DNA of 64,000 nt from an uncultured Actinomycetes bacterium. Its GTDB lineage: Bacteria; Actinomycetota; Acidimicrobiia; Acidimicrobiales; JACDEA01. Below the pieces are notes generated by a model. It was not told the origin of the DNA. It did not search any database and saw only the letters and a list, made by a program, of their open reading frames with translations. Below are positions 507 to 22,007 of this stretch, piece after piece. The DNA lies in contig CAVUMI010000005.1 in the NCBI GenBank assembly GCA_963742585.1, positions 52,908-116,907 of the forward strand, given 5' to 3'. The translations under genes and the position numbers were made by a program. The stretch's first letter is position 1. The number at the start of each line of letters is the position of its first letter.

Positions 507-591
507 GGGCCCCTCCTCGTGTCGAACGACACATTGCCTCCGCTGCGAACTCGATTATAGTACAATCATAATTCAATAGCGAGGAGCCCAA

Positions 592-7267: not shown

Positions 7268-7306
7268 CGCCGAGTTCTACCCGCCCTAGTCGGATGGACG
7301 GCACTC

Positions 7307-8494
7307 GTGGTGGCCGCCGCCGTCGTTGGCGAGGCCGTCGTCGGCCCGGAGCAGGGCGTCGAGGCGGCGCCGTTCTTCGGGCAGTGGGAGTGGCGGGTCA
7401 CGCCCGCGATCGGTCCAGCTATCGCCATCGCAATTGTTGTCCTCGCGGTCGGGGATCGCGTTACGCGGCGGGTGTCTTGGCGACCCCTGCTGGCGGTGGC
7501 TGGCGCGGTGGCGGTGGCGTGGACGTTCGCTCTCGCGGCATCCGACGGCCTGTCCCACGTCGCCGCCCCGCTCGAGTCGCGCTACGACTACCTCGCGGTC
7601 GTGCCCAGCATCGACCACGTCGGCGAGTTCGTGCGTACGTTCACCGAGCGCATCGGCGATTATCCCATCCATGTTCGCGGCCATCCGCCCGGCATGCCTC
7701 TCCTGCTCTGGCTGATGGACACTGCCGGCCTCGGTGGTCCTGGTCCAGCTGCCGCACTGATCCTCGTCAGCACGTGCCTCCTCGTCGTCGCCGTCCTCGT
7801 CACGTGCCGTGCCGTCGCCGGCGAGGCGGTGGCGCGGCGCGCGGCACCGTTCGTCGCACTGATGCCCGCCGCCCTCTGGCTGGGGACCTCGGCCGACGCC
7901 GTCTTCGCCTCGGTCATCGCCACCGGAATCGCCCTGGCCGTCGCGACGCGCCTGGCGTGGCTCGGCGGGGCCGTCCTCGGCCTCGCGCTGCTCTTCACCT
8001 ACGGAGCGGTGCCGCTGCTCGCCGTTCCCGCCGCCGTACTCGTGCACCGGCGAGCCTGGCTCGCTGCCCTCGCCACCGCGGCGGGAATCGCCGCCGTCCT
8101 GCTCGCGGCCGCCGTGGCTGGTTTCCGGTGGCCCGAGGGTCTCGCCGCAACGCGCGACGCCTACGCGGATGGCATCGCGTCGGATCGCAGCTACGCCTAC
8201 TTCACGCTGCTCGGCAACCCGGGTGCCTTCGCGGTGGCCATTGGTCCCGGCGCGGTTGCCGGCCTCGGCGCGCTACGCGATCGGCGGTTGTGGCTGCTCT
8301 GCGGTGCCGCGCTCGCGGCACTCCTCGCCGCCGACGTGTCGGGCCTGTCGAAGGCCGAGGTCGAGCGGATCTGGCTGCCGTACGTGCCGTGGGTGGTCGT
8401 CGCCGCCGCCGCCCTGCGTCGGTGGCGGCCGTTGCTCGCGCTCAGCGCTGCCAGCGCGATCGTGATGCAGCTCGCCCTGCGGAGCGCGTGGTGA
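7307..8494 (+). CDS. Polytopic membrane protein, GT-C-like glycosyltransferase candidate (start uncertain)
   Basis: Roughly 10 or more hydrophobic segments with a loop HVRGHPPGMPLLLW. The upstream 160 codons of ORF 6818..8494 are antisense to the GT2 gene and were discarded. The first plausible start is GTG 7307. Confidence 0.6.
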   Translation: MVAAAVVGEAVVGPEQGVEAAPFFGQWEWRVTPAIGPAIAIAIVVLAVGDRVTRRVSWRPLLAVAGAVAVAWTFALAASDGLSHVAAPLESRYDYLAVVPSIDHVGEFVRTFTERIGDYPIHVRGHPPGMPLLLWLMDTAGLGGPGPAAALILVSTCLLVVAVLVTCRAVAGEAVARRAAPFVALMPAALWLGTSADAVFASVIATGIALAVATRLAWLGGAVLGLALLFTYGAVPLLAVPAAVLVHRRAWLAALATAAGIAAVLLAAAVAGFRWPEGLAATRDAYADGIASDRSYAYFTLLGNPGAFAVAIGPGAVAGLGALRDRRLWLLCGAALAALLAADVSGLSKAEVERIWLPYVPWVVVAAAALRRWRPLLALSAASAIVMQLALRSAW

Positions 8495-9471
8495 GGGTCC
8501 TTGTCACCGGCGGCGTCGGGTTCATCGGCTCGCGGGTCGTCGCCCAGCTCACCGACGCCGGCTGCGAGGTCGTCGTTCTCGACAAGGCGGTTGGCACCGG
8601 CGACGTGCGCGATCCCGACGCCTGGCTCGGTGCGGCCCGCGGCGTCGACGCCGTCTGCCACCAGGCCGCCAAGGTCGGCCTCGGCATCGACTTCGGCGAC
8701 GTGTGCGACTATGTGGCCGACAACGACGGCGGCACCGCGGCGGGATTGTGGGCGCTGCACGAACTCGGCTTCGCCGGACGGCTCGTGCTGGCGAGCAGCA
8801 TGGTGGTCTACGGAGAGGGTCGCTACCGCTGTGCCGAGCACGGCGTGGTGCGACCGCCAGCCCGCGAAGTCAGCGATCTCGAAGCCGGGCGCTTCGACGC
8901 GCGGTGTCCGGCGTGTGTCTCGCCGCTGCAGCCCGAGGCGGTGCCCGAGGACGCACCGGCCGATCCGCGCAATGTCTACGCCGCGACCAAGCTGCACCAG
9001 GAGCATCTGTGCTCGGCATTCGCGCGGGAGCACCCGGGTGTGGCGTTCAGCGCGCTCCGCTACCACAACGTCTATGGGCCGGGTATGCCCCGCAACTCGC
9101 CCTATGCGGGCGTCGCCGCGCTGTTCGCTGACGCGCTGGCATCGGGCCGCGCCCCGAGGGTCTTCGAGGACGGCGGCCAGTTACGAGACTTCGTCCATGT
9201 CGACGACGTCGCCCGCGCCAACGTGCTCGCCCTGGGCGGCGATGGGGCCATGGGCGCGTTCAACATCGCGTCCGGTCAGCCCCGATCTGTCCTCGACCTG
9301 GCGAGTGCTCTCGCCGACGCGCACGGCGACGGTGCGCCCCGTCCGCAGGTAGTCGGCGGTTACCGGCTGGGCGACGTCCGCCACGTGTTCGCGTCGCCCG
9401 ACAAGGCGGCCCGCTTTCTCGGCTTCCGCGCCGAGGTTGATTTCGCTGCAGGCATCGCGTCAGTGCTGTAG
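8491..9471 (+). CDS. NAD-dependent epimerase/dehydratase (extended SDR) with a Cys-rich insertion
   Basis: Contains VLVTGGVGFIGSRV (Rossmann) and YAATK (YxxxK). GTG 8491 overlaps the upstream stop (GTGA). There is an insertion ...YRCAEHG...ARCPACVSP. Confidence 0.85.
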   Translation: MRVLVTGGVGFIGSRVVAQLTDAGCEVVVLDKAVGTGDVRDPDAWLGAARGVDAVCHQAAKVGLGIDFGDVCDYVADNDGGTAAGLWALHELGFAGRLVLASSMVVYGEGRYRCAEHGVVRPPAREVSDLEAGRFDARCPACVSPLQPEAVPEDAPADPRNVYAATKLHQEHLCSAFAREHPGVAFSALRYHNVYGPGMPRNSPYAGVAALFADALASGRAPRVFEDGGQLRDFVHVDDVARANVLALGGDGAMGAFNIASGQPRSVLDLASALADAHGDGAPRPQVVGGYRLGDVRHVFASPDKAARFLGFRAEVDFAAGIASVL

Positions 9472-9475
9472 CGGG

Positions 9476-10030
9476 TCACCTGCGGGCGAGCTGCAGGACT
9501 TCTTGCGGGTTGAAGCTGCCGAACCACCGCTTGATCTCCAGGCCGCTTTCGTCGAACAGCACCGCGGCAGGCTGTCCGCGGATACCCAACGCCCGCCACG
9601 AGTGACCGCTGCCGTCCCACAGCAGACTGAACGTCACGCCGCGACTGGTGCGGAACTCCTTGGCTTTGTCGAACGTGTCCTGGGTCCCGAGACCGATCAC
9701 GGTCAGAGTGTCTTGATGGGCTCGAGCGAACTGCTCGACGCCGGGCGCCTCCCGGCGGCAATGCGGTCAGTGTGGTGCCCACATCCACACCAGGAGCGGC
9801 GTGGACGCGGGCACGAAAGACCGCAGCGCGACCTTCCGACCCGTCGCGACGTCGAGCACCTCGACGGCGGGTAGGTCCGGCTCGACCGCTGGTTGCGCGG
9901 AGGCCGCGGTCGCATCGGGTGTCATGACGGGCGCGGAGAGCGTCGTCGGCACCGCCGTGCGAGTGCCGCTGCTCTGTCCGCAGCCGGCGAGGGCAGCAAA
10001 CGCCAAGAGCCCCGCCAGGATCCGTCTCAC
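9476..10030 (-). CDS. TlpA/ResA/DsbA-like thioredoxin-fold lipoprotein with an in-frame TGA at the first active-site Cys (candidate selenoprotein, or pseudogene)
   Basis: ORFs 9767..10030 and 9476..9700 are in the same frame, separated only by TGA (9769..9767). The read-through is ...PLLVWMWAPH-[TGA]-PHCRREAPGVEQFARAHQDTLTVIGLGTQDTF... The N-terminus MRRILAGLLAFAALAGCG carries a lipobox. Confidence 0.6.
9739..9757 (-). other. SECIS-like hairpin, 8 nt downstream of the in-frame UGA
   Basis: The mRNA reads UGA-CCGCAUUG-CGCCGGG-AGGCG-CCCGGCG. This is a perfect 7-bp G/C stem with a 5-nt loop that has G at position 2. Confidence 0.4.
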
Positions 10031-10175
10031 GTCTCCGACCCTAAGGCGCCGGATCGTGTCAGCGATCGCGGGCCGTCGTCCGTGTGTGTCGGTTCCCCGG
10101 CCATCCGTGCGGTCGGGCGCAGGGGTCGAGATATGACCGTAATGCCATCGTCCATTTCGGGACTACATCTGACGG

Positions 10176-10763
10176 ATGCCGTCCTCGCCTGGATTGGAGA
10201 TGCTCGACGAGGCCGGCACACCAGTCGCCGCGCCCGGCCGGTGGCTCGATGAGCCGTCGCGCGCCGAGGAGTCCGTGCTGGGGTTGGCGCGCGCGCCAGT
10301 GTTGGACGTGGGCTGCGGTCCCGGCCGGCACGTGCTCGCGTTGATGCGTCGCGGTATTTCTGCGATCGGGATCGACGTCGCCGCGCCAGTCGTCGAGCTT
10401 GCGCAGCGGCGTGGTGCGCTGGTCGCCCACGGATCGGTGTTCGACGCGCTGCCTCGGGAGTGGGGGACCGTGTTGCTCCTCGACGGGAATGTGGGCATCG
10501 GCGGCGACGCGCCGGTGCTTCTGCGACGCGTCGCCGAACTCGTCGCGCCCGGCGGCCGCGTTCTGGTCGAGGCCTCGCCACCGCGCACCCCGCAGCGCCG
10601 GCGGATCGTGCAACTCCGGCTCGGGGGCGCGGTCGGTGCCCGCTTCCTCTGGAGCGACGTGGGCGTTGACCATGTGGTGGCCAGCGCTCCCGATGCGGGG
10701 TTGCGACTTCGTCGCTGCTGGCTCGACGAGAACAGATGGTTCGTGTGGCTGGATCGCGCCTAG
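10176..10763 (+). CDS. Class I SAM-dependent methyltransferase (start possibly at ATG 10200)
   Basis: Contains VLDVGCGPGRH (motif I) and LVAPGGRVLVE. It is a paralog of the 55010..55729 product. Confidence 0.75.
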   Translation: MPSSPGLEMLDEAGTPVAAPGRWLDEPSRAEESVLGLARAPVLDVGCGPGRHVLALMRRGISAIGIDVAAPVVELAQRRGALVAHGSVFDALPREWGTVLLLDGNVGIGGDAPVLLRRVAELVAPGGRVLVEASPPRTPQRRRIVQLRLGGAVGARFLWSDVGVDHVVASAPDAGLRLRRCWLDENRWFVWLDRA

Positions 10764-10834
10764 CCCGCGAGTGCGCGTCGGCAGCGCCGGCCGTCACGAG
10801 GGCTCGAGCGACTCGGGGGCCGGCGCGCCGAGCG

Positions 10835-10866
10835 GGTGACCTTCGGGTTATCAGAGGTGACCTTCG
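10835..10866. repeat. 11-bp direct repeat GGTGACCTTCG x2, 21-bp period, in a 360-bp non-coding stretch
   Basis: Exact copies at 10835..10845 and 10856..10866. Confidence 0.6.
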
Positions 10867-11020
10867 AGCTGACGACGGCGTCGACGTGTCAACAGTTTGG
10901 CGACGCGACTTGCGCAGACGACCGCCGACCAGCACCTACGAGATCGCACGAACCTCGGCCCGAAAGCGGCACTGGCCAGCACAAACGCCGCCGGACGCAT
11001 ACGAGCGCAGACGAAGCTCG

Positions 11021-11062
11021 GGATCCCACACCACCCCCGCCACTCACGCCACCCCCGCACTA
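11021..11062 (+). repeat. Degenerate copies of a tRNA 3'-end (att-scar-like)
   Basis: GGGATCCCACACCACCCCCGCCACT (a collapsed T-arm plus the acceptor 3' strand) contains the 14-mer CCACCCCCGCCACT, identical to 18888..18901. A second partial copy, CCACCCCCGCACT, is at 11050..11062. Confidence 0.4.
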
Positions 11063-11125
11063 AATCCGCAGGGTCAGGCGCCCCTCACTCGAACGGAGCC
11101 ATCAGGTCCGTAGGTTGGTGCGGCC

Positions 11126-11776
11126 GTGGCAGAACTGTCGGGCTCCCAGAGTGCTCCGAGACGCCGGGCGGTCGCGTGGGTGAAGGAGGACCCCTTCGGC
11201 GTCGAATTCGCAGAGATCGCGATCGCGGACGACCGCCTCACAGCAGTGGGCGTAGCCATCGGTACTCGGCCAACTCCGTACCGGCTCGACTACCGGCTCG
11301 AAACCGGCTCAGCGTTCGTGACGACGCGCCTGGGTGTAACGAGCATCGGCGACGGATGGAGTCGTGAACTCGACCTCCGCCGCGACCTAGACGGTGTTTG
11401 GCACGCTGCGACGAGCGAGGAAGGACACCTCGACCTGCCACCGGCCGGGGTCGAGGTAGCCGGCATGGAGCAGGCCCTGGACTGCGACCTTGGCCTATCT
11501 CCCGTAACCAACATGATGCCGATACTTCGCCACAACCTCCTTCAGCGTGAGCGGACTATCGAGTTCACGATGGCCTGGGTCTCGGTGCCGGCGCTCACTG
11601 TTCGCGCCGATGGTCAGCGCTACGCCCACATCAGCTCTCGTCCGGATCGCCACGTCATTCGCTACGAAGCGATCGACGGCACCTTCGCGGCCGACATCAC
11701 CGTGGACGGCGATGGCGTCGTGATCGACTACCCGGGCATCGCCCAGCGACTGCCCGTCGTCCCAAAGGGGCTCTGA
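11126..11776 (+). CDS. Putative glycolipid-binding domain protein (DUF1089-like)
   Basis: AWVKEDPFGVEFAEI...YRLDYRLETG...LDCDLGLSPVTNMMPILRH resembles the family pattern as I recall it. Confidence 0.55.
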   Translation: MAELSGSQSAPRRRAVAWVKEDPFGVEFAEIAIADDRLTAVGVAIGTRPTPYRLDYRLETGSAFVTTRLGVTSIGDGWSRELDLRRDLDGVWHAATSEEGHLDLPPAGVEVAGMEQALDCDLGLSPVTNMMPILRHNLLQRERTIEFTMAWVSVPALTVRADGQRYAHISSRPDRHVIRYEAIDGTFAADITVDGDGVVIDYPGIAQRLPVVPKGL

Positions 11777-11823
11777 ATCGGTCGCCGTCGCAGAGGCCCG
11801 ACGGACTTTCGGATTAAGCGCGG

Positions 11824-12783
11824 CTAGAAGGCAGCCACGTCGCTGGGGCAGCGCTTGTTGTTCTCGGCCGCCTGCTGTGCGCCGTCGCCGCACTGCGCTG
11901 AACAGTCCAACGGCGCGGACGAGCGGGTTTCGCCCCGGCTCGGTTCGCACACGCCGTCCACGGCGCTGGGCTGCGGCAACAGCGGCGAGTTCGGCCACAG
12001 CGAAGCGCGGCCACCGTCGCCTGTCGCAGTGTTTGGGAACCAGATGGTCAGGACGAACTCGGTGAGATCCATCGACTTGACCCATCCGGCGCCCGCCACG
12101 ATGGCGTCCATTGTCGGCGCCAGCAACAGCTTTACGAACGCGACGACGTCGGTGCCGGGAAGCGGCAGCGCCCGCTCGGCGTACGAGACGATCTCGGCGA
12201 CATTCGTCGTCGGGTCGAACAGCATCCACACCGCGGCGAGACCCCGGCGTTGGGCCTCAGCGCGCACACTTGGCCACCCGCCCTGGAGCGCGGCGAGGCC
12301 TTGGTCCATGGGGAGTTGCCACCGTTCGGTCCGCATGGCGACACGGTTGGCATTGACGGGGGAGAAGTCGCGCGCACCTACGGTCACCCAGGGTCGGCAA
12401 TCAGGATCCTGGAAGTAGGGCCGCTGGAGGAAGTGCGTGCCGTCTAGCACGAAGTCGTTCACGACCCAGTTGAAGTAGTCCTGCGCATGCGCGTACGTGT
12501 CGAACAGATAGCGGCCGCCCGAGCGCACCGACTGCGTCTTGGCGTCGACGACGAGGGGCAGGTGCTTGTCGACCATGCCGGGTCGCCGCGCCATGTAGAT
12601 GCGGTCCCGCTCGATGACCGCGGCGAGATCCTGCGTGAGAGCGCCGGGTCCGATGCCGAAGTCGCAGGTGAACGCGCCGGCCGGGGCGGCGCTGTCGCCG
12701 ACCGCGCCGGCCGCGGCGCCGCGGCCCATCGGGGTCAGACTGAGCGCGGCGGCGAGAACGATTACTCGGAAAGTGCGGCTCAT
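11824..12783 (-). CDS. Secreted hypothetical protein with a Cys-rich C-terminal tail
   Basis: ATG 12783 overlaps the upstream stop (ATGA). The signal peptide is MSRTFRVIVLAAALSLTPMGRGAAAGA. The tail is ...VCEPSRGETRSSAPLDCSAQCGDGAQQAAENNKRCPSD. I recognise no family. Confidence 0.6.
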   Translation of the reverse strand: MSRTFRVIVLAAALSLTPMGRGAAAGAVGDSAAPAGAFTCDFGIGPGALTQDLAAVIERDRIYMARRPGMVDKHLPLVVDAKTQSVRSGGRYLFDTYAHAQDYFNWVVNDFVLDGTHFLQRPYFQDPDCRPWVTVGARDFSPVNANRVAMRTERWQLPMDQGLAALQGGWPSVRAEAQRRGLAAVWMLFDPTTNVAEIVSYAERALPLPGTDVVAFVKLLLAPTMDAIVAGAGWVKSMDLTEFVLTIWFPNTATGDGGRASLWPNSPLLPQPSAVDGVCEPSRGETRSSAPLDCSAQCGDGAQQAAENNKRCPSDVAAF

Positions 12784-14036
12784 GAGGGGCATCCCGCCGG
12801 GCGCAAGCGGGCTACGACCTCGTCGGCGATGCGGCGGCCGGCGGTCAGCCCCGCTTGATTGCTGAACTCGAAGTGCTGGCCGCCGAGAACGCGGGACCGG
12901 CCGACCTCAGCCGCAGCGGCCGAGAAGCTGGCATACGAGCGGTCCGCGCCGCCACCCGAGTCGCTGGTGATGGTGAACGAGATGTCGTCCCGGCAAAAGA
13001 ACTGCGCAAGCACTTCGGCGCCGGCTCCGCTGAAGGAGCTGTGCCCCGAGAAGTGCTCGGGCGTGCCGGCCACTTTGTCGCGACCCGTCCACGGTTCGCC
13101 GTCGGTGTCGGAGTTTCCGTCGTCGTCGCCCTCGTTGATCGCGGTTTCCGGTCGCCAGTACCCGTAATCGAACTTCGCCTCGTTCGTCGGTCCGACGGTG
13201 TCGGCCAGCGCCATGCTCTCGAGCGCGAACAGCTGGGCGGTTTCCTCCAGCGACAGGCCCTGGACGGCGGAGACTGTCTGCGCGATCTGCAGCCATGCAC
13301 CCGGCGGCTGGTTCGTGCCGCCGCTCAGCTTCCAGAACCCGTACGTGGCGGCCGCGGCCGGATCGGGTGCCTTCGAGCCGACTGCCTTCACGTCGTTGAA
13401 CGCCGAGGTGTAGGCGGGACTGTCCATCGCCGGCAGCGGCGCCTCGGCGTAGGGCGCGGGGTCGGCGAGGGCGAACGGACGCAAGTGGCGGAAGTGAGCG
13501 TCCCACGGGGAACGGAACTGGCCGATCCCGCTGCGTGCCGGCACCATCTCCGAGCCGGCCGCACCGTCGTCGGCGCGGGCCGCCACAACCGCCGCGGCGA
13601 CTCGGGCGCCCCACGCCTGCCCATGCGCCACGTCGCCACGCATCGACGCAACATCGGCATCGAGCTGCGCGTCGTACGTATCCCTATGGCTCGGGTAGAG
13701 CGCGACGAGGACATGGTGGGCGGCGGTCGCGGCCGCCGCGACCGGATCGCCCTTTGCGCCACGTTCAGGTGCAACGAGCGCGGGTGGCGCCGGCCGCTTG
13801 GCGAGACCGTTGACGGCGTCGAACATGGCGACGTTCACCATCGCGTAGAGCCGTGCAGCGAGCGCATCGCTTCCGGAGGTCTGGCGGATGGTGTTGAACG
13901 CCACCGTTGTCCATACCCGAACGACGTCGCCGTTCGGCCGAGGACGTGCCTCGGCGGCGCCGGTGGCTGTCCACGTGACGCTCACGGTCGCGGCGACCAA
14001 CGCGATTGCGACGTGCCGTGTCTTTGCCCCGATCAT
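12780..14036 (-). CDS. Secreted PAP2-superfamily protein, vanadium-dependent haloperoxidase-like
   Basis: Has a signal peptide (MIGAKTRHVAIALVAATVSVTWTATGAAEA). Motifs are KFDYGYWRP (Kx6RP), FSGHSS (SGH) and SRVLGGQH (SRx5H). ATG 14036 overlaps the methyltransferase stop (ATGA). Confidence 0.65.
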   Translation of the reverse strand: MIGAKTRHVAIALVAATVSVTWTATGAAEARPRPNGDVVRVWTTVAFNTIRQTSGSDALAARLYAMVNVAMFDAVNGLAKRPAPPALVAPERGAKGDPVAAAATAAHHVLVALYPSHRDTYDAQLDADVASMRGDVAHGQAWGARVAAAVVAARADDGAAGSEMVPARSGIGQFRSPWDAHFRHLRPFALADPAPYAEAPLPAMDSPAYTSAFNDVKAVGSKAPDPAAAATYGFWKLSGGTNQPPGAWLQIAQTVSAVQGLSLEETAQLFALESMALADTVGPTNEAKFDYGYWRPETAINEGDDDGNSDTDGEPWTGRDKVAGTPEHFSGHSSFSGAGAEVLAQFFCRDDISFTITSDSGGGADRSYASFSAAAAEVGRSRVLGGQHFEFSNQAGLTAGRRIADEVVARLRPAGCPS

Positions 14037-15091
14037 GGCCGCACCTCGTACACCGCGTTGAACGGCGTCTCGGTGGCGCGGCGGAAGCGGGTAAAGCCGC
14101 CCTGCAGAACGACGTCGCGCATGCGCGCGTCTCCGGCTTGCGCGCCGAGCGCGAGACCGACCTCCTGGCTGCGGGAGGCGGGGACGCAGATGAGCGTCGA
14201 CGCCGAGTAGAAGATCCGACCGACGGGGTTCAGGTTGTCCTCGAGCGCGTCGCAGGCATTGGGCTCGACGATCATCCACGTGCCCTCCGCCGCCAGCGCG
14301 GCCCGCACGTGCTTGGCGGCGCCGACCGGATCGCCCATGTCGTGCAGGCAATCGAAGGACGTGACGAGGTCGAGCTCGGTCCCGCTGAACGATGCCGCGG
14401 TGGCGACTTCGAACGTGCAACGATCGCTGACGCCCGCCTCCGCGGCTGCGTTGCGTGCCGCTTCGATCGACGGTGCGTGGGGGTCGCTGCCGACGAAGGT
14501 CGAGTCGGGATACGCCTTGGCCATCAGGATGGTCGAGGACCCGTAGCCGCAGCCGATGTCGGCCACGCGGGCGCCGTTCTCCAACTGGGCAACGACGCCG
14601 TCGAGTGCGGGGAGCCAGTTCTCGACGATGTTGCCGATGTAGTTGGGGCGGAAGAAGCGGTCGGTGCCCTGGAACAGGTTGTCGTCGTGCTCGCCCCAGT
14701 CGATCCCGTCACCGGACCGCATCGCGTCGGCGACGAGGCCGACGTCGGCGATGGTCGAGGCGGCCAGCTGAAGGCCGCCCGGCGCGAACACGGGATTGTC
14801 GGGGTTCGTCAGCGCAAACGCCTGCTCTTCGGTCAGGTGAAACGTGCCGTTGGTGGCGTCGTACTCGGCGTAACCGCTCGCAGCTTGCGCCGCCAGCCAC
14901 TCCGCCAGGTAGCGCTCGTCGCAGCCGGTGCGCTTCGCCAGTTCGGCCGGTGTGACCGGCTGTTCCGCGCCCATGGCCGCGTACAGCCCGAGCCGGTCGC
15001 CGACGAGCACGGTCGCGGCGTGCAGCACCGCACCCAGGTCACCGGCAAACCGTCCGACGAACTCGTCGAGGCGCTTTTCGTCAATTGCCAT
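14033..15091 (-). CDS. Class I SAM-dependent methyltransferase with an N-terminal winged-helix-like domain
   Basis: ATG 15091 is preceded by AAGGAGAG. Contains VADIGCGYGSS (motif I). 352 aa. Confidence 0.8.
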   Translation of the reverse strand: MAIDEKRLDEFVGRFAGDLGAVLHAATVLVGDRLGLYAAMGAEQPVTPAELAKRTGCDERYLAEWLAAQAASGYAEYDATNGTFHLTEEQAFALTNPDNPVFAPGGLQLAASTIADVGLVADAMRSGDGIDWGEHDDNLFQGTDRFFRPNYIGNIVENWLPALDGVVAQLENGARVADIGCGYGSSTILMAKAYPDSTFVGSDPHAPSIEAARNAAAEAGVSDRCTFEVATAASFSGTELDLVTSFDCLHDMGDPVGAAKHVRAALAAEGTWMIVEPNACDALEDNLNPVGRIFYSASTLICVPASRSQEVGLALGAQAGDARMRDVVLQGGFTRFRRATETPFNAVYEVRP

Positions 15092-15113
15092 TTGACTCTC
15101 CTTTGTTCGAGGT

Positions 15114-15680
15114 TCAGTCGACCTTGATGGCCGACACGTCGAGTTCGATCTCGATGCGGTCGCTGACGACGACGCCCCCCGTGTCGAGCGTCTGGTTCCA
15201 CGTGAGGCCCCAGTCGCTGCGCTTGAGCGCACCCGAACCGGAGAAGCCCACGCGGTGCTGGCCGTAGGGGTCGACGCAGGTGCCCTGGTAGACGAGGTCC
15301 AGGTGGACAAGCCGCGCGATTCCCTTGATGGTCAGATCGCCGGCGACGCGGTAACGGTCGCGGCCCCGGACCGTGATGGCCGTCGTCGCAAAGGTGATCG
15401 TCGGGTGGCGGTCGACGTCGAAGAAGTCGGGCGAGCGCAGGTGAGCATCCCGGTCGGGGTTGCTCGTTCGTATGCTCGTCGCGTCGATCGTCAAGGCGAC
15501 GGACGAGTTGGTGGGATCGGACCCGTCGACGTGGAGCCGGCCGTCGACGCCCTCGAACCAGCCGTGGACGCGTGCCACGAGCAGGTGGCGTGCCGCGAAG
15601 CCGATGCGGGTGTGCGCGGGGTCGAACTGGTAGCTACCGGCGAGGTCGTGGAGGACGTCGATCGACGCAGAAACAGTCAT
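15114..15680 (-). CDS. YceI-family (polyisoprenoid-binding-like) protein
   Basis: YQFDPAHTRIGFAARHLLVARVHGWF...IRTSNPDRDAHLRSPDFFDV...FSGSGALKRSDWGL is a typical YceI signature. Confidence 0.85.
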   Translation of the reverse strand: MTVSASIDVLHDLAGSYQFDPAHTRIGFAARHLLVARVHGWFEGVDGRLHVDGSDPTNSSVALTIDATSIRTSNPDRDAHLRSPDFFDVDRHPTITFATTAITVRGRDRYRVAGDLTIKGIARLVHLDLVYQGTCVDPYGQHRVGFSGSGALKRSDWGLTWNQTLDTGGVVVSDRIEIELDVSAIKVD

Positions 15681-15791
15681 GGGTTCGCACCTTTCGTTGG
15701 ACTGCGATGTGCTGAGCGTGCGGGATGACGCGTGCGGTCTCGCGTGCGGCGGGCGTGCGCGCCGGAATTCAGGTGCGCTGGAGGCGCCGTG

Positions 15792-18731
15792 TCACCGCGG
15801 AGGCGAAGGTGACGGAGTCGGCGTCGTCGAGGCGTTCGCCGCGCTGCACGGCAGCTTCGAACTCGCCTTGTCCGAGCTCGGCGGCCAGGGTTCGCACGAC
15901 CGCCTGCAGCCGGTCCGCCTCCGGGCCGTACGGGGAGAGGTCCGGTTGAAGGTCGCGCACGCTCCGTAGAGCACCGCGGCTTCTTCGTACGCGCCGAGCC
16001 GACTGATCAACTCGACGAGATTGCGCAGCGTAAGCCACAGCTGCGTCCACCCACCGCTACGACGCCAGTACTCGATCACTTCCTCGAACAGCGGTAGCGC
16101 AAGCGCCGGATCGCCGTGGCGGCCGCGAAGTGACGTGTTGGACACCAAGGCGTTGCCGGTCATGAACACGTTGTCCGCAGCACGCGCGAACGCGAGAGCC
16201 TCGCCGATCGGCTCCAACGCGTGCACGGGATCGACGTCGAGCACGGACTCGCCCTCCGAGTAGTAGATCAGCGCCATCATCGTCGGATTTCCCGTCGGCA
16301 CCGCGACTTGCCGCGCCTGCTCGGTCAGCGCCTTCGCGGCCGGGATGTCGCCGCGCTTGGCGACGATGACCCCCAGATTGCACAAGCCCCATACCTCACC
16401 CTGGTCGTAGCCGGCGAGCTGCCAGAGACGGGTGAATGCGATCGAGTATTCGGGGGCCTCATCGAGGCGTCCACTAAGAAGACAGATGCCTGCGAGCGCT
16501 TCAGTCGGCAGCGCCCGGCGAAGGTCGTCACCGTCGTCGCACAACGCGAGCGCGCGCTCGGCGTAGTCCGTTGCAATGTCCATCTCCCCACGGTGCATCC
16601 GGCGAACCGCGGTGCAACCAAGTACCACCGGGAACAACGGGTGGTCCTGCATCGCAGGGAGATCGACCAGCGCTTCGGCCCAGCTGAGGATCTCGTCGTT
16701 CGCCTGCCAGGTCGCAAACCGGTGCAGTGCGACCGACAGGCGGATGGCCACGTCGGGATCGCCGCCTTCGCCGCGCGACCACTCGTGGGCCGCCCGCAGG
16801 TTGTCGAGTTCGCCGTGCAGCCGCCGCGCCCAGTCACGCTCGTGTGGACCGCGCAGTGCGACCTCGGCTTCCTCGGCCAGGCGGAGGAAGTAGCGGGCGT
16901 GCGCAGTGCCGACTGTTTCCCGCTCACGACGCGCCTCGAGGTGTTCGACGCCGTAGAGACGGAGCGTTTCGAGCATGCCGTAGCGCGGTGGGCCCGACGG
17001 AGTCGGCGGTACGACCATTGACTTCTCGGCCAGCCCGGCGACGAGGGCAGCCGCGTCGGCATCCGAGACCGCGCTCGGCGCGCACACCGCGGCGGCTGCG
17101 TCGAGCGTCCAGCCCCCGGCAAAGACGGAGAGCCGGTCGAACATTGCTCGCTCGGTGTCGTCGAGCAACCCGTACGACCAGTCGACGAGTGCCCGCAGTG
17201 TCCGGTGGCGCTCATCCTCGTTGCGCGGACCTGAGGTCAGCAGTGTGAACCGGTTGCGGAGCCGTTGCGCCAAGTCCTGCGCGGTCAGAACACCTAATCG
17301 GGACGCGGCGATTTCCAGGGCCAGCGGCAGGCCGTCGAGCCCGCGACAGATCTCGACCACCGCGCCGGTGTTCGGTTCGTCGAGCACAAAGCCGGCCCGC
17401 GTGGCGCACGCTCGATCGAGAAACAACGCCACTGCGGGCGACGCCAGGACGTCTGCCGGCTCGGCGGTCGCCGATGGTACGGACAGGGGAAGGACGGGCC
17501 AGACGTGCTCGCCGTCGACACCAAGGCGCTCGCGGCTCGTCGCCACGATCGTGACGTGCGGACAACGCCGAGCCAACGCGTCGACGAGATGTGCCGCGGC
17601 GTGCAGAACGTGTTCGCAGTTGTCGACGACCAGCAGCATCCGGCGGTGTCGGAGCGAAGCGACCAGCGCCTCCACGACGTCGACTCCGGGAGCGAGGACG
17701 ACGCCTAACGTCGTGGCGACCGCATGCGGGACGGCGTCAGCGGAGTTCAGCCGCGCCAACTCGACGACCCATGTTCCGTCCGGAAATGCGGCGGCGACGG
17801 TCTCGGCCAGGCGCAACGCGAGGCGGCTCTTGCCCACTCCGCCGACGCCGACCAGGGACATCAGGCGCACCCGGTCGACCAGGTCGGCCAGCGCGGCGAC
17901 GTCGTTGTCTCGCCCGACAAACGTGGTGATCGCCGGCGCGAGATTGCCCAGGCCCTCCGGACGCGCCGCGGGCGGCTCTGCGGTGATGAGGTCCGGCGCT
18001 TGGGCCAAGATCTGGCTCTCGACTTCGCGCAGGACGGCCGAGGGTTCAAGCCCCAGCTCCTCGGCGAGTCGTTCCCGGAAGCGCTGGTAGAGCCGGAGGG
18101 CATCGACCTGACGACCGGCGGACGCCATCGCCCGCATCAGCTGCGCGTGCGGACGCTCGCGCAATGGATGCGCGGCGACCACGCCCTCCAACACGCTGAG
18201 CGCCTCAGCGGTGCGCGCGACCGCCAGCAGCGCGTCGGCGCGCATTTCGACCGCAGTCTGGTGCAGCTCCTCGAGACGAACCGCCTCGGCACGCGCCAGT
18301 TCGTCGTCGGCGAACTCGGCGAAGGCAGGACCGCGCCACAGCGTCAGCGCGGCGTCCAGCAGCGCGAGCGCGCCGCCCGGGTCGTCGGCCAACCGGGTCT
18401 GCGCCTCGCCTAACAGGGCGCAGAACTCGAGGGCGTCGAGCTGGTGGACGCTGAGCTCGATCGCGTACCCGGGGGGTCGCGTGACGATGGGTGCGGGTTG
18501 CTCTGGCGTACGTAGCCGACGCCGCAGACGGGCCACATATGTCTGCAGGGCGTTGCGGTCCGAATGCGGCGCGTCGTCTCCCCAGACTGCATCGATCAAG
18601 CGCGAGGTCGAGACCACGGCATTGGCGTCCACCAGTAGCGCGGCAAGGACCTTTCGCTCGTTGCGGCTACCGATGTCGACGAGGTGGCCGCCGCGCCGGA
18701 CCTCGAGCGAGCCGAGTACTCGAATCTCCAT
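15792..18731 (-). CDS. AfsR/SARP-family regulator (OmpR-type wHTH, BTAD, NB-ARC ATPase, TPR), with a possible frameshift in the last ~60 codons
   Basis: MEIRVLGSLEVRRGGHLVDIG...ALQTYVARLRRRL is the SARP DNA-binding domain, and VGVGGVGKSRLA is Walker A, followed by a long TPR-like tail. A more typical C-terminus (DLSPYGPEADRLQAVVRTLAAELGQGEFEAAVQRGERL) lies in another frame that ends at 15769. Confidence 0.85.
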   Translation of the reverse strand: MEIRVLGSLEVRRGGHLVDIGSRNERKVLAALLVDANAVVSTSRLIDAVWGDDAPHSDRNALQTYVARLRRRLRTPEQPAPIVTRPPGYAIELSVHQLDALEFCALLGEAQTRLADDPGGALALLDAALTLWRGPAFAEFADDELARAEAVRLEELHQTAVEMRADALLAVARTAEALSVLEGVVAAHPLRERPHAQLMRAMASAGRQVDALRLYQRFRERLAEELGLEPSAVLREVESQILAQAPDLITAEPPAARPEGLGNLAPAITTFVGRDNDVAALADLVDRVRLMSLVGVGGVGKSRLALRLAETVAAAFPDGTWVVELARLNSADAVPHAVATTLGVVLAPGVDVVEALVASLRHRRMLLVVDNCEHVLHAAAHLVDALARRCPHVTIVATSRERLGVDGEHVWPVLPLSVPSATAEPADVLASPAVALFLDRACATRAGFVLDEPNTGAVVEICRGLDGLPLALEIAASRLGVLTAQDLAQRLRNRFTLLTSGPRNEDERHRTLRALVDWSYGLLDDTERAMFDRLSVFAGGWTLDAAAAVCAPSAVSDADAAALVAGLAEKSMVVPPTPSGPPRYGMLETLRLYGVEHLEARRERETVGTAHARYFLRLAEEAEVALRGPHERDWARRLHGELDNLRAAHEWSRGEGGDPDVAIRLSVALHRFATWQANDEILSWAEALVDLPAMQDHPLFPVVLGCTAVRRMHRGEMDIATDYAERALALCDDGDDLRRALPTEALAGICLLSGRLDEAPEYSIAFTRLWQLAGYDQGEVWGLCNLGVIVAKRGDIPAAKALTEQARQVAVPTGNPTMMALIYYSEGESVLDVDPVHALEPIGEALAFARAADNVFMTGNALVSNTSLRGRHGDPALALPLFEEVIEYWRRSGGWTQLWLTLRNLVELISRLGAYEEAAVLYGACATFNRTSPRTARRRTGCRRSCEPWPPSSDKASSKLPCSAANASTTPTPSPSPPR

Positions 18732-18779
18732 GCCGCTGCCCAACGCGTTCAACGCTAGTAGGAAGCGCGCCGCGAAACG

Positions 18780-18799
18780 TGTCAAACAACTTGTCAAAC
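18780..18799. promoter_or_regulatory. Direct repeat TGTCAAAC x2 (12-bp period) upstream of the SARP gene
   Basis: Copies at 18780..18787 and 18792..18799, about 50-70 bp upstream of ATG 18731 on the minus strand. Confidence 0.3.
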
Positions 18800-18845
18800 G
18801 AACGGCCGCGTCACCCGACATCACGACGGCGAACCACCCACCACC

Positions 18846-18899
18846 GTGCGTGTCGGGCTCATCACCCGAAGGGCGTGGGTTCGAATCCCACCCCCGCCA
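18846..18899 (+). pseudogene. 3' fragment of a tRNA-Met(CAU), initiator-like (anticodon arm, T arm, acceptor 3' strand only)
   Basis: GTCGGGCTCATCACCCGAAGGGCGTGGGTTCGAATCCCACCCCCGCCA matches the 3' two-thirds of bacterial tRNA-fMet, including the GGG/CCC anticodon stem. There is no D arm, only 4 of 7 acceptor pairs can form, and position 37 is C. Confidence 0.65.
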
Positions 18900-18981
18900 C
18901 TTGTGATGTCTCAAGAATGCCAAAGCCCCTATTGCATGCTTACCGTGAAAGCATGTAACGTGCTCGAATGAGAGCAGGCGC

Positions 18982-19269
18982 TTGATTGCCTCCTTTGGCG
19001 ACCGGGCGACCGAGGCGTTGTTTCACGGACGCGGCGCCGCGACACCTCATCTGCCGAGCGACATCCGAAGGGTGGCCGCCCGGAAGTTGGACGTCATCAA
19101 TGCCGCCAAGGAATTGGGTGACCTGAGAGCACCGCCGGGCAATCGCCTGGAGGCGTTGAGAGGAGATCGAAGAGGCATGCACAGCATTCGCGTGAACGAC
19201 CAGTGGCGCATCGTCTTTACTTGGCGCGATGGCGACGCCCACGACGTGTCGATCGTGGACTATCACTGA
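18982..19269 (+). CDS. higB: HigB-family (RelE/ParE superfamily) toxin
   Basis: MIASFGDRATEALFHG...LRAPPGNRLEALRGDRRGMHSIRVNDQWRIVFTWRDGDAHDVSIVDYH is a canonical HigB ('plasmid maintenance system killer') pattern. TTG start. Confidence 0.85.
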   Translation: MIASFGDRATEALFHGRGAATPHLPSDIRRVAARKLDVINAAKELGDLRAPPGNRLEALRGDRRGMHSIRVNDQWRIVFTWRDGDAHDVSIVDYH

Positions 19270-19280
19270 GGCGAGGACAC

Positions 19281-19568
19281 ATGCTGCCGACCAATCGGAT
19301 CCCGACTCACCCCGGAGAGGTCTTGGCCGAGGAGTTCCTCAAGCCACTCGGCCTAACCCAGGTCGCGCTGGCGGCGCACCTAGATGTGCCGGTTCAGCGG
19401 ATCAATGAGCTCGTCAGAGGCAAGCGCGGCGTCACCCCCGAGACCGCATGGCTCCTGGCCGGTGCCTTCGGGACCACCCCGGACTTTTGGGTGAACCTTC
19501 AGACGGCGCACGACCTTGCCGCCAGCCGGCCGAAGAAGCAGGTGCGCCAGCTGGCCCAAACTGGGTGA
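19281..19568 (+). CDS. higA: HigA-family antitoxin (XRE HTH)
   Basis: HPGEVLAEEFLKPLGLTQVALAAHLDVPVQRINELVRGKRGVTPETAWLLAGAFGTTPDFWVNLQ. It sits downstream of higB, as in HigBA modules. Confidence 0.85.
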   Translation: MLPTNRIPTHPGEVLAEEFLKPLGLTQVALAAHLDVPVQRINELVRGKRGVTPETAWLLAGAFGTTPDFWVNLQTAHDLAASRPKKQVRQLAQTG

Positions 19569-19579
19569 CGGCAAACTCG

Positions 19580-20017
19580 TCAAACAACTGGAAGCGACCT
19601 CGGCGCGGCGTTGAGGTGTTCCGCCACCACCCCGTCGTGAAGTCGGCGGTCCCACACCGCGACAAGAAGGCTTGGCGACTTGATGGCGAGAGCGCTTGCG
19701 AGATGGACGGCATCGCCGCCGCGTAAGCCTCGACGCTTCGCGAGCTCTCCAGCACGCTTTTCGACGTCGGCTGACAGCTCGACTGGGCGCGTTGCCGCCC
19801 AAAACTCTTCCCAGTCTCGGGCAGCTAGAGCGAAGTCCCGGTCGTCGAGGTCCTGGTTCCGGTGAGCCGCTGCGAGGGCAGCGCACACCTCGGGATAGGC
19901 GAGGCGGCTGGAGAGAGCGGCGTCGCATCCGTCCCAGAGCGCGGATGCGATGTCGCTGCCTTCCTCCTCGACGACGAGCTTCACTAGGGCGCTCGAGTCG
20001 AAGTACACGATGGCCAT
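19580..20017 (-). CDS. vapC: PIN-domain toxin (VapC-like)
   Basis: MAIVYFDSSALVKLVVEE...GGDAVHLASALAI... carries the PIN acidic residues. It follows an antitoxin gene with a 3-bp gap. Confidence 0.85.
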   Translation of the reverse strand: MAIVYFDSSALVKLVVEEEGSDIASALWDGCDAALSSRLAYPEVCAALAAAHRNQDLDDRDFALAARDWEEFWAATRPVELSADVEKRAGELAKRRGLRGGDAVHLASALAIKSPSLLVAVWDRRLHDGVVAEHLNAAPRSLPVV

Positions 20018-20020
20018 GGC

Positions 20021-20284
20021 CTACCGGCGTTGGTCGCTCACGATGTCGGCCACCGGTCGGCGCGGGCGCGGGCGTCGACGAGCCGTCGCCGAGGGACGCC
20101 TTCGACGCGGCGGTCCGGCGATCACTCCTTGCTGGACTAGCTCCTCCAGCCTCGTCGTGGTCGTGAGGCCGAGGATCCGTGCCACCGGCACGCCGCGGTC
20201 GGTGATCACAACTTCGTCTCCGGCCCGCACTCGCTCAAGCCATCGGCTGAGATTCGCTCGCAGTTCGCTGACGGCAACGTCCAT
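20021..20284 (-). CDS. Phd/YefM-type antitoxin
   Basis: MDVAVSELRANLSRWLERVRAGDEVVITDRGVPVARIL is the Phd/YefM N-terminal signature. 87 aa. Confidence 0.75.
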   Translation of the reverse strand: MDVAVSELRANLSRWLERVRAGDEVVITDRGVPVARILGLTTTTRLEELVQQGVIAGPPRRRRPSATARRRPRPRRPVADIVSDQRR

Positions 20285-20752
20285 GACTAAAGTGTACAAA
20301 ATCCAGGGCACGAATTGTACAGAAGTCGGTGCCCGGCGCTGCCTACTACTCCGCCTGTTGTGACTCCAAGCGTGCGAGCACGTGTACATCGGGTCGGACG
20401 ATCCGAGCGACGGTGAGCTGTTCGACAACCGCTCGCCGAGCTTCACGTTCGTCGATCTCCGTCTGCCCGCGTTGCTCAGACACCCAGACGAGGCCGTCCG
20501 ACGCCCCAGAGCTCCCGGCGCGGATCATCCTCCTCGCGCGCCGTCCGAAGCGCCGGACGAAACGCGGCGTCCGCTTCATCGACTCGGCCACGGAGCCCGT
20601 CGCATCACCCGCGCAATGGCGCGATCACCGTGGACTGGCAGCAGATCTCCGTCGGTCGTCACCAAGAGGGCCGACGCGTCGACGCACATGTCCTGGAGCC
20701 TCTGCTGCTCTCGGCGAACCTGGCGGCGCGGCGAAGCTCGGCGTTTCTGGCC

Positions 20753-21371
20753 TCATCGCGCGTCGCGCCACATGGCGTATAGGGAGGGACCGTCCGGGAG
20801 CGGGATCTCGCGGGTGAAAGAGAAGCCGAGCCGCTCGTAAAGGGCGCGGTTCCGGAGTGACGTCGCTTCGGTGTATGCGGCCTCGCCGTTTTCGTCGGCC
20901 GCAGCGAGCACGTCGCGGAGCAGCGTGGCCCCGATGCCGCGGCTCTGAAGCGGCGGGTCGGTGGCAAGGAACTGCAAGTACCAGTGCGGGTCCTGTGGGT
21001 AGCACCCTCGAACGCCTCGACGATCTGCTGAAGGCGCTGCGCGGCGCCGTCGTCGATCACTTCGAGACAGCGGGCCACCATTGCTTCCTCGTCATCAGGT
21101 TGCATGAGCGGTGCGCCTGGTCGGGCCCAGATGGCGACACGGCGGCGGCGGCGGCGGTGCTGGCGACGCGGGTCGCGTCGTGCGGAGCGTAGGCGTCGAT
21201 ATACGCGTCGAATACCGCAGGCAGGGCCGTGGCGCGAGCGACGGGGTTCGGGATCCACCATTCGAACACGGGATCGTTCTGGAACGCGGCGCTGAGGACG
21301 CGGACAGCTTCGGTCCTGGTGGCCTTCGTTACGTCGGTAACAGCGGTCAGGTTGTCGTTGGTGATGGTCAT
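20753..21371 (-). pseudogene. GNAT N-acetyltransferase with two frameshifts
   Basis: There are three consecutive frame segments: MTITNDNLTAV...RVASTAAAAAV, then AIWARPGAPLMQPDDEEAMVARCLEV...VEAFEG, then YPQDPHWYLQFLATDPPLQSRGIGATLL...YERLGF. The first shift lies inside a (GCC)n run near 21135, the second near 20998. Confidence 0.65.
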
Positions 21372-21544
21372 GGCAGTCCTTTCAGTTGCCGAGTCGATAG
21401 ATACGGAAGAAGCCGGCGTCGACGTGGACGATTCGCAATGCGTGAAGCCGCCGGCGGCCCGCGCCGCCATCCGAAGTCGACTCACGAGGGCGCAACAAGT
21501 TCCAGACTGACGACCTCGTCGCGGCGTACCCGGCGAGGGTCCAG

Positions 21545-21880
21545 TCAACTGGCGGAACCGGCTTCGAGCCATGAGCGCAGCCCCGGATCGAGTTGGGCGG
21601 CGGCGGCCTCATAGAGAGCGAGGTCGTTCTCGGTGAGGACGTCGCGCCACCGTCCGTTGGTGCCCTTGTGGAAGAAGCGGCCGGCCCCGCCCTCGAAGAT
21701 GAGCCTCGTCCGCTCATCGTTTCGCATCGCCTCCTGCTTCATGGTGTCGAAGCGGGCAGCCGCCACCAGCTCGGGCCACGTGTCCTCGACCACCTCGATT
21801 CGGGTGAACGCGGCGACGCGACGCATCTGGCCTTCGAGGTCCGCGAGAAGGTCGGCGTAGTGGACCGTTAGCGCATGGCT
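21545..21880 (-). pseudogene. Sulfotransferase, C-terminal fragment only
   Basis: VHYADLLADLEGQMRRVAAFTRIEV...FFHKGTNGRWRDVLTENDLALY matches the C-terminal third of cytosolic-type sulfotransferases. The PAPS-binding N-terminus is absent. Confidence 0.65.
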
Positions 21881-21893
21881 TCTCTCCAGCGTG

Positions 21894-21929
21894 GCCGATT
21901 GGAGCGGTTGAGCCGATTGGAGCGGTTGA
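21894..21929. repeat. Perfect 18-bp tandem duplication (GCCGATTGGAGCGGTTGA x2)
   Basis: Read directly from the sequence. It lies at the truncated 5' boundary of the sulfotransferase fragment. Confidence 0.9.
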
Positions 21930-22007
21930 TATGTAACGCGCGGGCGCAAGGCCGGACTAAATGCCAGTGCGCTGCTCTGAGGCGGCGCCTAATTCGGAGG
22001 GGAACCC

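Follow-up and report, generated by a model that had tools for sequence, protein, structure and literature searches.

Does the gene cluster at about 10.8–18.9 kb of a 64,000-nucleotide stretch of contig CAVUMI010000005.1, from an uncultured Actinomycetes bacterium, represent inserted DNA, and are the pieces of transfer RNA sequence at its two ends the footprints of that insertion? The cluster, here called the module, holds genes for a glycolipid-binding protein, a 322-amino-acid (322-aa) protein, a haloperoxidase-like protein, a methyltransferase, a YceI-like protein and a regulator of the SARP family; the whole 64-kb stretch is called the window. A preliminary description, made from the letters alone, took direct repeats of a tRNA-Met 3′ end around the SARP/haloperoxidase genes for attachment (att) scars, and three related loci (L042, L041 and L043) support that proposal. 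With a probability of roughly 0.7, we read the module as an integrase-less island bounded by the decayed att sites of an integration hotspot in the initiator tRNA gene (tRNA-fMet). That it behaves like an island of the type called a cis-mobilizable element (CIME), or at least like a discrete unit inside the tRNA-fMet hotspot, we consider essentially right.

An initiator tRNA fragment at the right end

The right-hand piece lies at 18852–18899 on the plus strand and covers tRNA positions 27–74, comprising the anticodon arm with CAU, the variable loop, the T arm and the 3′ acceptor strand with discriminator A. A degenerate pattern of the fragment recovered 34 loci in species-representative genomes, nearly all of them intact initiator tRNA-fMet genes, and a profile built from 16 distinct initiator tRNAs among these hits matched the fragment over model positions 24–74 (nhmmer, E = 4.2e-12). 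On the strength of this match we identify the fragment as an initiator tRNA reduced to its 3′ two-thirds, with the anticodon stem at one end and the discriminator at the other. The genes found with the pattern have a 5′ CGCGGGG, three G:C pairs closing the anticodon stem, CAU, a 3′ CCCCGCC-A and C1:C72; their hosts are Acidimicrobiia, Chloroflexota, Acidobacteriota, Rhodothermales, Brevibacterium and Actinomyces.

Among the initiator signatures, the fragment has the GGG/CCC closure of the anticodon stem and CAU, and at position 37, where a purine (A) is expected, it has C. This A37C change is joined by U47G in the variable loop, and the CCA end is missing. The T arm is intact (GTGGG TTCGAAT CCCAC), as is the acceptor 3′ strand, CCCCGCC plus A. 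There is neither a D arm nor a 5′ acceptor strand, and the upstream CCACCCACCACCGTGCGT is unable to pair with CCCCGCC. ARAGORN reported no intact tRNA in the 64-kb window (0 genes), and Rfam recognized only the T arm, as a tmRNA/tRNA-clan match. The preliminary description had anticipated most of this: the initiator-like identity is upheld by both profile and pattern, the missing D arm, the unpaired acceptor strand and C37 are there in the sequence, and the tRNA-Met 3′ end is real, except that a start at 18846 takes in 6 bases that do not belong to the tRNA.

Intact tRNA-fMet genes with the same T stem (GTGGG/CCCAC) were found on only two metagenome contigs. One of these, L039, is 93% identical to the right fragment over 59 nt (L039 60–118, window 18852–18909), including 8 nt downstream. 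The CT plus TGTGATGT that follows the discriminator directly, at 18900–18909 on the plus strand, recurs beside the L039 tRNA-fMet and probably forms the end of the att identity block. Identity to intact tRNA-fMet genes extends from position 26/27 through the discriminator and about 10 nt further, which is the extent of a classic att identity block, and in relatives six or more independent fragments are likewise cut off where the anticodon stem begins. An att site is further recognized by a partial tRNA copy running from the anticodon arm through the 3′ end and by a synteny break at the repeat, and both are found here. We interpret the right fragment as a distal (attR-type) att remnant, a fossil attachment site, because of this block anatomy, the recurrence of such fragments in direct orientation after intact tRNA-fMet, an integrase pseudogene, the loss of synteny and the presence of two sequence types.

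Nine related loci (L035–L037 and L041–L046) were compared with the window, the close relatives among them being drawn from the SARP 90% cluster. Upstream of SARP in L035, L036/L037, L041, L043, L044, L045 and L046 a counterpart of the right fragment is absent, and on this ground we rejected the possibility that the fragment is a conserved part of the SARP upstream region. A half-tRNA locus in a Solirubrobacterales metagenome-assembled genome (MAG; L009) and a viral contig with an intact tRNA-Met of the same T arm (L040) showed no integrase in the open reading frames (ORFs) scanned.

The module in related loci

The orthologous locus L042 (ERZ25039516 contig_26382) carries a SARP–YceI–methyltransferase–SnoaL–haloperoxidase module between flanks unrelated to those of the window: a 333-aa gene, panB, panC, UDG and tsaEBD lie beyond its SARP end, and the opposite flank carries giant RTX-like genes. 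Three blocks align, namely L042 8146–12946 with window 18834–14030 (SARP–YceI–methyltransferase, 93.7% identity), L042 13340–14575 with window 14016–12782 (haloperoxidase, 82.5%) and L042 14710–14785 with window 10899–10822 (84.6%); no L042–window homology was found beyond them. The L042 module is bracketed by two tRNA-fMet 3′ fragments in the same orientation, at 8023–8066 on the right (E = 5.5e-9) and at 14667–14705 on the left (E = 3.3e-6). In pairwise alignment, identity between the window and L042 spans the right fragment and collapses right after ..CCCCGCCA (..GCCA); on the left it ends at window 10899/10905. Directly before the right fragment, the window carries a deletion of about 56 nt relative to L042.

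The right fragments of the two genomes are identical at 38/48 positions (79%), against 93.7% in the adjoining DNA. The L042 copy keeps A37 and U47 and has a collapsed T arm, whereas the window copy has A37C and U47G, a difference that indicates independent decay from an L039-type sequence. Given the low identity and these independent mutations, we regard the right fragment as a scar and not as a functional RNA. The two L042 fragments also differ from each other in the T arm, GTGGGTTC.. on the right and GTTCAAATCCTGCC on the left, the left one resembling the intact tRNA of L041. Two sequence types at one locus fit hybrid att sites, in which element and host site are combined; simple duplication would not fit.

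Other relatives provide pieces of the integration apparatus and repeated fragments. On the 1.7-Mb contig L041, the 3′ end of an intact tRNA-fMet faces a tyrosine-integrase pseudogene 110 nt away (PF00589 C-terminal fragment, E = 3.6e-12); after a further 5.1 kb comes an anticodon-arm remnant, and then YceI–methyltransferase, OsmC, PyrRedox and a SARP gene of 93.9% identity. The order in L043 is UPF0182, intact tRNA-fMet, a fragment (E = 6.8e-8), an acceptor-only scar, a second fragment (E = 6.5e-12), YceI–methyltransferase–OsmC–PyrRedox and SARP. The L043 fragments share one orientation and form a tandem array. Fragments of the tRNA-fMet 3′ half also lie near the cluster in L035 and L045. These four loci (L035, L041, L043 and L045) have what we term the type A order, in which tRNA or fragment is followed by YceI–methyltransferase–OsmC–PyrRedox with SARP convergent; the type B order, SARP–YceI–methyltransferase–vanadium haloperoxidase (VHPO), is that of the window and L042, and L046 and L036/L037 are grouped with these two. 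The L043 array and the L041 integrase pseudogene beside an intact tRNA-fMet bear out the preliminary suggestion of an old island or a tandem-integration hotspot.

The intact tRNA-fMet genes of L041 (21626–21702) and L043 (17566–17641) have different T arms, GTAGGTTCAAATCCTGC and GTCGGTTCAAATCCGGC, and differ in the variable region as well. The T-arm difference fits incoming elements that replace tRNA-fMet 3′ halves. Judging from such differences between intact genes of relatives and from the tandem 3′-fragment arrays, the essential initiator tRNA gene appears to be a repeatedly used integration hotspot in this lineage. A separate observation concerns L035 13444–13530 on the minus strand, where ARAGORN called an 87-nt 'tRNA-Pro(cgg)'. 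The call is false; the sequence is a tRNA-fMet 3′-half fragment (nhmmer, E = 2.2e-10) that has no matching 5′ half and adjoins an rve-family insertion sequence (IS), a family present only in this relative.

The SARP gene is 94–96% identical in nucleotide sequence in six relatives with different flanks. Against window 15732–18770, the conserved segment in L035, L041 and L043–L046 consists of SARP with about 30 nt upstream and 25–60 nt downstream, at 94–96% identity, and the surroundings differ. L044 is a mosaic with SARP at 96%, haloperoxidase at 94%, a remnant of the 322-aa gene and the glycolipid-binding gene at 88%; its homology stops at window 11156 and 18766. L046 has SARP and YceI at 93.5%. 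Between types A and B, SARP is about 95% identical and YceI only 75%. For L045 against L042, identity is 94.4% in the SARP segment and 70–74% in the panC–tsaE flanks. Because SARP identity of 94–96% stands between contigs whose panC–tsaE flanks are so much less alike, the SARP gene looks to have been exchanged or converted recently as a cassette.

The left end and competing explanations

At the other end of the module, a scar at 11020–11061 on the plus strand reads GGGATCCCACA-CCACCCCCGCCACT-CACG-CCACCCCCGCACT and consists of acceptor-end remnants of the right-fragment type, including the CT after the discriminator. An exact 14-mer, CCACCCCCGCCACT, stands at 11031–11044 and at 18888–18901, and a second partial copy, CCACCCCCGCACT, at 11049–11061. 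Both copies had been noticed in the preliminary description, which placed them one base too far on, at 11032–11045 and 11050–11062. Rfam gave no match at the scar (10.8–11.3 kb) even at E up to 10. Within the same 363-bp intergenic gap lies a second, inverted tRNA-fMet remnant, at 10838–10871 on the minus strand, with D-stem, anticodon arm and variable loop (AGCTCG..CTgATAACCCGAAGGTC). It is the second-best profile match in the whole window (nhmmer, E = 0.02; all others E >1), holds an internal duplication of CGAAGGTCACC and is conserved with L042 (14754–14770, E = 0.0097). In direct orientation, the window offers only a 14-mer and a 13-mer at 11031–11061 as a second copy of the tRNA end, accompanied by the inverted remnant; the L042 module has a clear second fragment.

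Chance was estimated with 300 simulations of the window (third-order Markov model, both strands). Two matches of at least 13 nt to the full tRNA-fMet within 400 bp of each other occurred in 0/300 simulations, and a rough calculation from the simulated rate of 0.26 matches per window puts such a pair at about 4e-4. Motif counts in 203 kb, made up of the window and the related loci, gave six occurrences of the 11-mer CCCCCGCCACT, 5/6 of them in tRNA-fMet fragments or scars, and showed the 13-mer CCCCGCCACTCAC to be common only to the left scar of the window and the distal fragment of L043. The credibility of the left scar is raised by the inverted remnant that shares its gap and by a motif specific to tRNA-fMet remnants. 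The scar sits in a window-specific junction of 256 bp (10900–11155), between the synteny breakpoints with L042 (10899/10900) and L044 (11156). Further left, the block at 10822–10899, which is common to L042 at 84.6% identity, forms the left end of the unit in both genomes. As an island boundary, the left scar first described is backed by the inverted remnant and by relatives, and the boundary itself is revised to about 10822.

These observations can be arranged in a scheme in which a tyrosine integrase would have inserted an element into the tRNA gene by crossover in or near the anticodon loop. The tRNA would be rebuilt at the proximal end, and a copy of its 3′ part, beginning with the anticodon stem and reaching slightly beyond the 3′ end, would be left at the distal end. 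The tRNA-fMet of an Acidimicrobiia-like lineage would have served repeatedly as a hotspot, with elements piling up in tandem (accretion) and later losing their integrases and decaying. The genes between about 10.8 and 18.9 kb would constitute one integrase-less unit, comparable to a CIME, with the right fragment closing one end and a decayed tRNA-fMet cluster (11020–11061 on the plus strand, 10838–10871 on the minus strand) closing the other. We infer that integration was mediated by an integrase, with events in the order given, that the 14-mer scar is the partner att site, and that the module itself, and not only its neighbours, is inserted DNA.

Several observations weigh against this reading. 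An intact tRNA and an integrase at the proximal end, further marks of an att site, were not found in the window (the integrase not among its larger ORFs); L041 has both (tRNA plus PF00589 fragment). By chance, the window would contain one or more exact 14-mers of the 56-nt fragment with P = 0.047, which is borderline when taken alone. The left scar, of 14 nt and 13 nt, does not stand at the position of the L042 left fragment, because the window-specific 256-bp junction intervenes, and it is not demonstrably that fragment's orthologue. Moreover, the unit common to the window and L042 extends past the scars to the inverted remnant, which simple integration does not predict. No tRNA-fMet fragments were found in L044 and L046, with SARP at 93–96% identity, and none were detectable in the more distant L036/L037 (72%, SARP–YceI–methyltransferase kept). 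Of the synteny check proposed in the preliminary description, the breaks at the right fragment (L042), at 10899/10900 and at 11156 agree with the reading, but no empty site was found among the nine related loci examined. Finally, because the cluster genes occur in several arrangements, rearrangement might have placed the fragments beside the module secondarily.

The main rival develops this last point. The module would never have integrated; it would be chromosomal or older island DNA lying in a tRNA-fMet accretion zone and copied by duplication, inversion and deletion between the att fragments of other elements. Such a history would accommodate the two paralogous cluster types with their similar SARP (about 95%) and dissimilar YceI (75%), the inverted remnant at the left end, the mosaic variants L044 and L046 that lack fragments, and a type A cluster that may lie just left of the window, where the end of L035 continues into 1–2341. 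It accounts poorly, however, for the L042 fragments, which stand exactly at both module ends, in direct orientation and in different sequence types, or for window homology that ends at the 3′ end of the fragment, since breakpoints at att sites are not what random rearrangement predicts. We regard it as unlikely.

Two further possibilities seem to us somewhat less probable than that. The first goes beyond an island with decayed ends and sees in the module a still mobilizable, integrase-less cassette that rides the tRNA-fMet integrases of co-resident elements by accretion and cis-mobilization. Were this so, it would explain how a SARP-regulated halogenation cluster, 94–96% identical, came to be dispersed among uncultured Acidimicrobiia-like lineages with core genes only about 70–75% identical, and sequence carried by the elements would write over the 3′ half of the essential initiator tRNA time and again. 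The second accepts the right fragment alone as a true att remnant and puts the 14-mer at 11 kb down to chance; the island or array would end at 18.9 kb but start far to the left, beyond the window, and 11.0–18.9 kb would be no unit. The borderline P value of the 14-mer alone (about 0.05), the missing Rfam match at 10.8–11.3 kb and a left scar not collinear with the L042 left fragment all agree with this, and another, unrelated exact 14-mer to tRNA-fMet in the window shows that such matches can occur. Yet this additional 14-mer, too, comes from the 363-bp gap, where it belongs to the tRNA-fMet remnant conserved in L042, the co-occurrence of two matches was never reached in simulation, CCCCGCCACTCAC recurs only in the L043 distal fragment, and the synteny breaks of L042 and L044 flank the scar.

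Very improbable, in our estimate, is a truncated pseudogene, in other words a resident tRNA-fMet whose 5′ half was removed by some deletion or insertion in which no integrase took part, such as illegitimate recombination that brought in the SARP segment. In keeping with this, no integrase was found in the window, and the 8 nt that follow the fragment are similar to the sequence naturally downstream of the L039 tRNA-fMet, but truncation at the start of the anticodon stem is expected of att blocks and recurs in the six or more independent fragments, and relatives have fragment arrays and an adjacent integrase pseudogene. Least credible of all is a half-tRNA retained for a regulatory or structural role of its RNA between the divergent SARP and higBA promoters: the fragment does sit in the 250-bp SARP–higB gap with its T arm as an intact hairpin, but it is only 79% identical to its L042 orthologue between 93.7% flanks, its T arm is destroyed in L042, and it is absent upstream of the 94–96% identical SARP genes of L035, L041 and L043–L046.

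Gene content and known systems

The island that we favour contains six genes, annotated with Pfam. The putative glycolipid-binding protein (PF06475) is encoded on the plus strand at 11126–11776, with 88% nucleotide identity to L044, where the gene likewise lies near SARP and haloperoxidase genes. The others are on the minus strand. The 322-aa protein (11824–12792) has no Pfam match, and the start of its gene overlaps the haloperoxidase stop; the gene is absent in L042 and reduced to an 81-nt remnant in L044. The PAP2/VHPO-like protein (12780–13904) is 82.5% identical to L042 and 94% to L044, and its homologues in both carry PF22778 VCPO_2nd. Next come a methyltransferase with an Rv2258c-like winged-helix domain (14033–15028) and a YceI-like protein (15114–15680), the latter within the contiguous 93.7% homology to L042. 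The large SARP-family regulator (15768–18731) combines Trans_reg_C, BTAD, NB-ARC/AAA and TPR domains, beginning with an OmpR-type winged helix (PF00486, E = 7e-13) followed by BTAD (PF03704, E = 2.4e-37). That SARP regulates the module genes is assumed from adjacency only. No core biosynthetic enzyme (polyketide synthase, non-ribosomal peptide synthetase or terpene synthase) was seen in the module. Base composition was dismissed as a mark of the module, which has a GC content of 68.5% against 67.8% for the window.

The reading frame of SARP shifts about 45 codons ahead of its normal stop, and the ORF as read ends at 15792. Over the C-terminus (15768–15940, minus strand), all close relatives end in ..AFASAVTRRLQRT, whereas the window reads ..SPRTARRRTGCRRS.. 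and stops 24 nt ahead of the conserved TGA at 15768. The frameshift makes the gene either a pseudogene or the victim of an assembly indel; related long-read contigs likewise show split genes. The SARP upstream region common to L042 (18732–18851) holds a perfect direct repeat, TGTCAAAC-N4-TGTCAAAC, at 18780–18799, with a 12-nt period, about 50–70 nt upstream of the SARP start. Its conservation in L042 is 100% despite variable neighbouring bases, and it could be an operator or promoter element or, alternatively, an integrase arm-type site.

A Pfam scan of the larger window ORFs, with many small ORFs and some gaps between called genes lying outside it, found no integrase, transposase or transfer gene. 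It also found no integration or transfer gene at 10.8–18.9 kb, and none of the replication, transfer or virion genes of an integrative and conjugative element (ICE), an actinomycete ICE (AICE) or a prophage. The preliminary statement that the window has neither integrase nor intact tRNA accordingly stands for the tRNA and, as regards integrase, for the larger ORFs scanned. An active ICE, AICE or prophage was rejected, as none of these genes occurs in those ORFs. An IS-bounded composite transposon was rejected too; no transposase was found in the window ORFs scanned, and the inverted tRNA pieces (10838–10871 and 18852–18878) match imperfectly.

Right of the fragment, where the preliminary description saw a TA-rich, decayed region, 18900–18981 has 50% GC and leads to higB (18982–19269), with higA next, and to a PIN (VapC) toxin gene (19580–20017) paired with a Phd/YefM antitoxin; fragments of GNAT and sulfotransferase genes lie beyond. 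This region of two type II toxin–antitoxin pairs and gene fragments (18982–21949) has no counterpart in the related loci examined. No further tRNA-fMet fragment that might close a second island around higBA was found up to 22 kb, where no profile match reached E <1. Left of the module, genes at 4864–10763 for a GT2 protein, a DUF2064 protein, a methyltransferase, a protein with a molybdopterin-oxidoreductase domain and an epimerase recur near the L041 SARP (L041 1335–6112), in rearranged order and at 46–66% amino-acid identity; from these values, the neighbourhood seems conserved at a much deeper level than SARP itself. At the left edge, window 1–2341, with genes for a TetR protein, a short-chain dehydrogenase (adh) and an MFS–thioesterase fusion, is 87.5% identical to L035 1–2403, at the end of that contig. 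In L035, this TetR–adh–MFS end adjoins TacA/GNAT, VCPO, SARP, YceI and a tRNA-fMet fragment, and on account of the match the source genome may hold a second SARP cluster, of type A, just left of the window. Elsewhere in the window, four consecutive minus-strand ORFs of about 120–132 aa (37903–39440) look like a small family of tandem paralogues; two of them contain a 147-nt direct repeat of 71% identity (38752–38898 and 39141–39287).

For annotation, the half-tRNA at 18.9 kb should be treated not as a gene but as a mark of the edge of horizontally acquired DNA; in this poorly characterized group of soil Actinomycetota, the SARP/haloperoxidase cluster then counts as accessory and appears to have been exchanged recently. 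Such marks are useful for island prediction and natural-product genome mining and change no general principle: the relatives confirm the scar well, and its kind is ordinary. That elements integrate into tRNA 3′ ends, form tandem arrays and leave decayed att sites is textbook matter. A literature search, neither specific nor exhaustive, gave among the papers listed no report of an initiator tRNA as an integration site; this target, the host group (uncultured Acidimicrobiia-like Actinomycetota) and the cargo of SARP and haloperoxidase cluster appear to be undescribed.

Integrative elements of actinomycetes use tRNA 3′ ends, as do pSAM2 (tRNA-Pro), SLP1 (tRNA-Tyr) and pMEA300 (tRNA-Ile), in high-GC actinobacterial hosts, with an att identity block from the anticodon arm to the tRNA 3′ end and a tyrosine integrase at the tRNA-proximal end. 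Williams reportedly set out a scheme of sublocations for integration sites within tRNA genes in 2002. The present locus resembles these elements in its high-GC actinobacterial host and in the span of the att block, and L041 resembles them in the integrase beside the tRNA-proximal end. It differs in its initiator tRNA target and in being a remnant and not an active AICE, with no rep, tra, spd or integrase gene found in the window. SARP-regulated biosynthetic clusters offer a second comparison: here, too, a large SARP stands beside a small operon of tailoring-type enzymes (VHPO-like PAP2 and methyltransferase, with SnoaL in relatives), but the module differs in showing no core biosynthetic enzyme.

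In the ICESt1/ICESt3 family, CIMEs and site-specific accretion produce tandem structures when a new element integrates into a resident element's att site (Guedon et al. 2017, PMC5704250). A CIME is flanked by attL and attR and has no integration or transfer genes; in the module no such genes were found, and the right att remnant is good and the left one heavily decayed. Unlike in CIMEs, the att sites here show visible decay (the right one has A37C and U47G, the left one is down to 14 nt), and no partner ICE or integrative and mobilizable element was identified in the window; only the different flanks and the excess of sequence identity point to mobilization of the module. At the ssrA gene of Dehalococcoides, tandem islands are delimited by direct repeats of the gene's 3′ end, and some units, with strain-variable metabolic genes as cargo, have no integration genes and are discussed as possibly cis-mobilizable or fixed (McMurdie et al. 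2011, PMC3146451). The target there is tmRNA and not an initiator tRNA, the repeat is 20 bp and not about 48–59 nt from the anticodon stem, and the enzyme is a CcrB-type serine recombinase, whereas the only recombinase seen here, in a relative, is a tyrosine integrase fragment (PF00589); the hosts here are Actinomycetota MAGs, known from sequence alone. Common to both systems are a single small-RNA gene as the hotspot, units arranged in tandem and members that lack integration genes.

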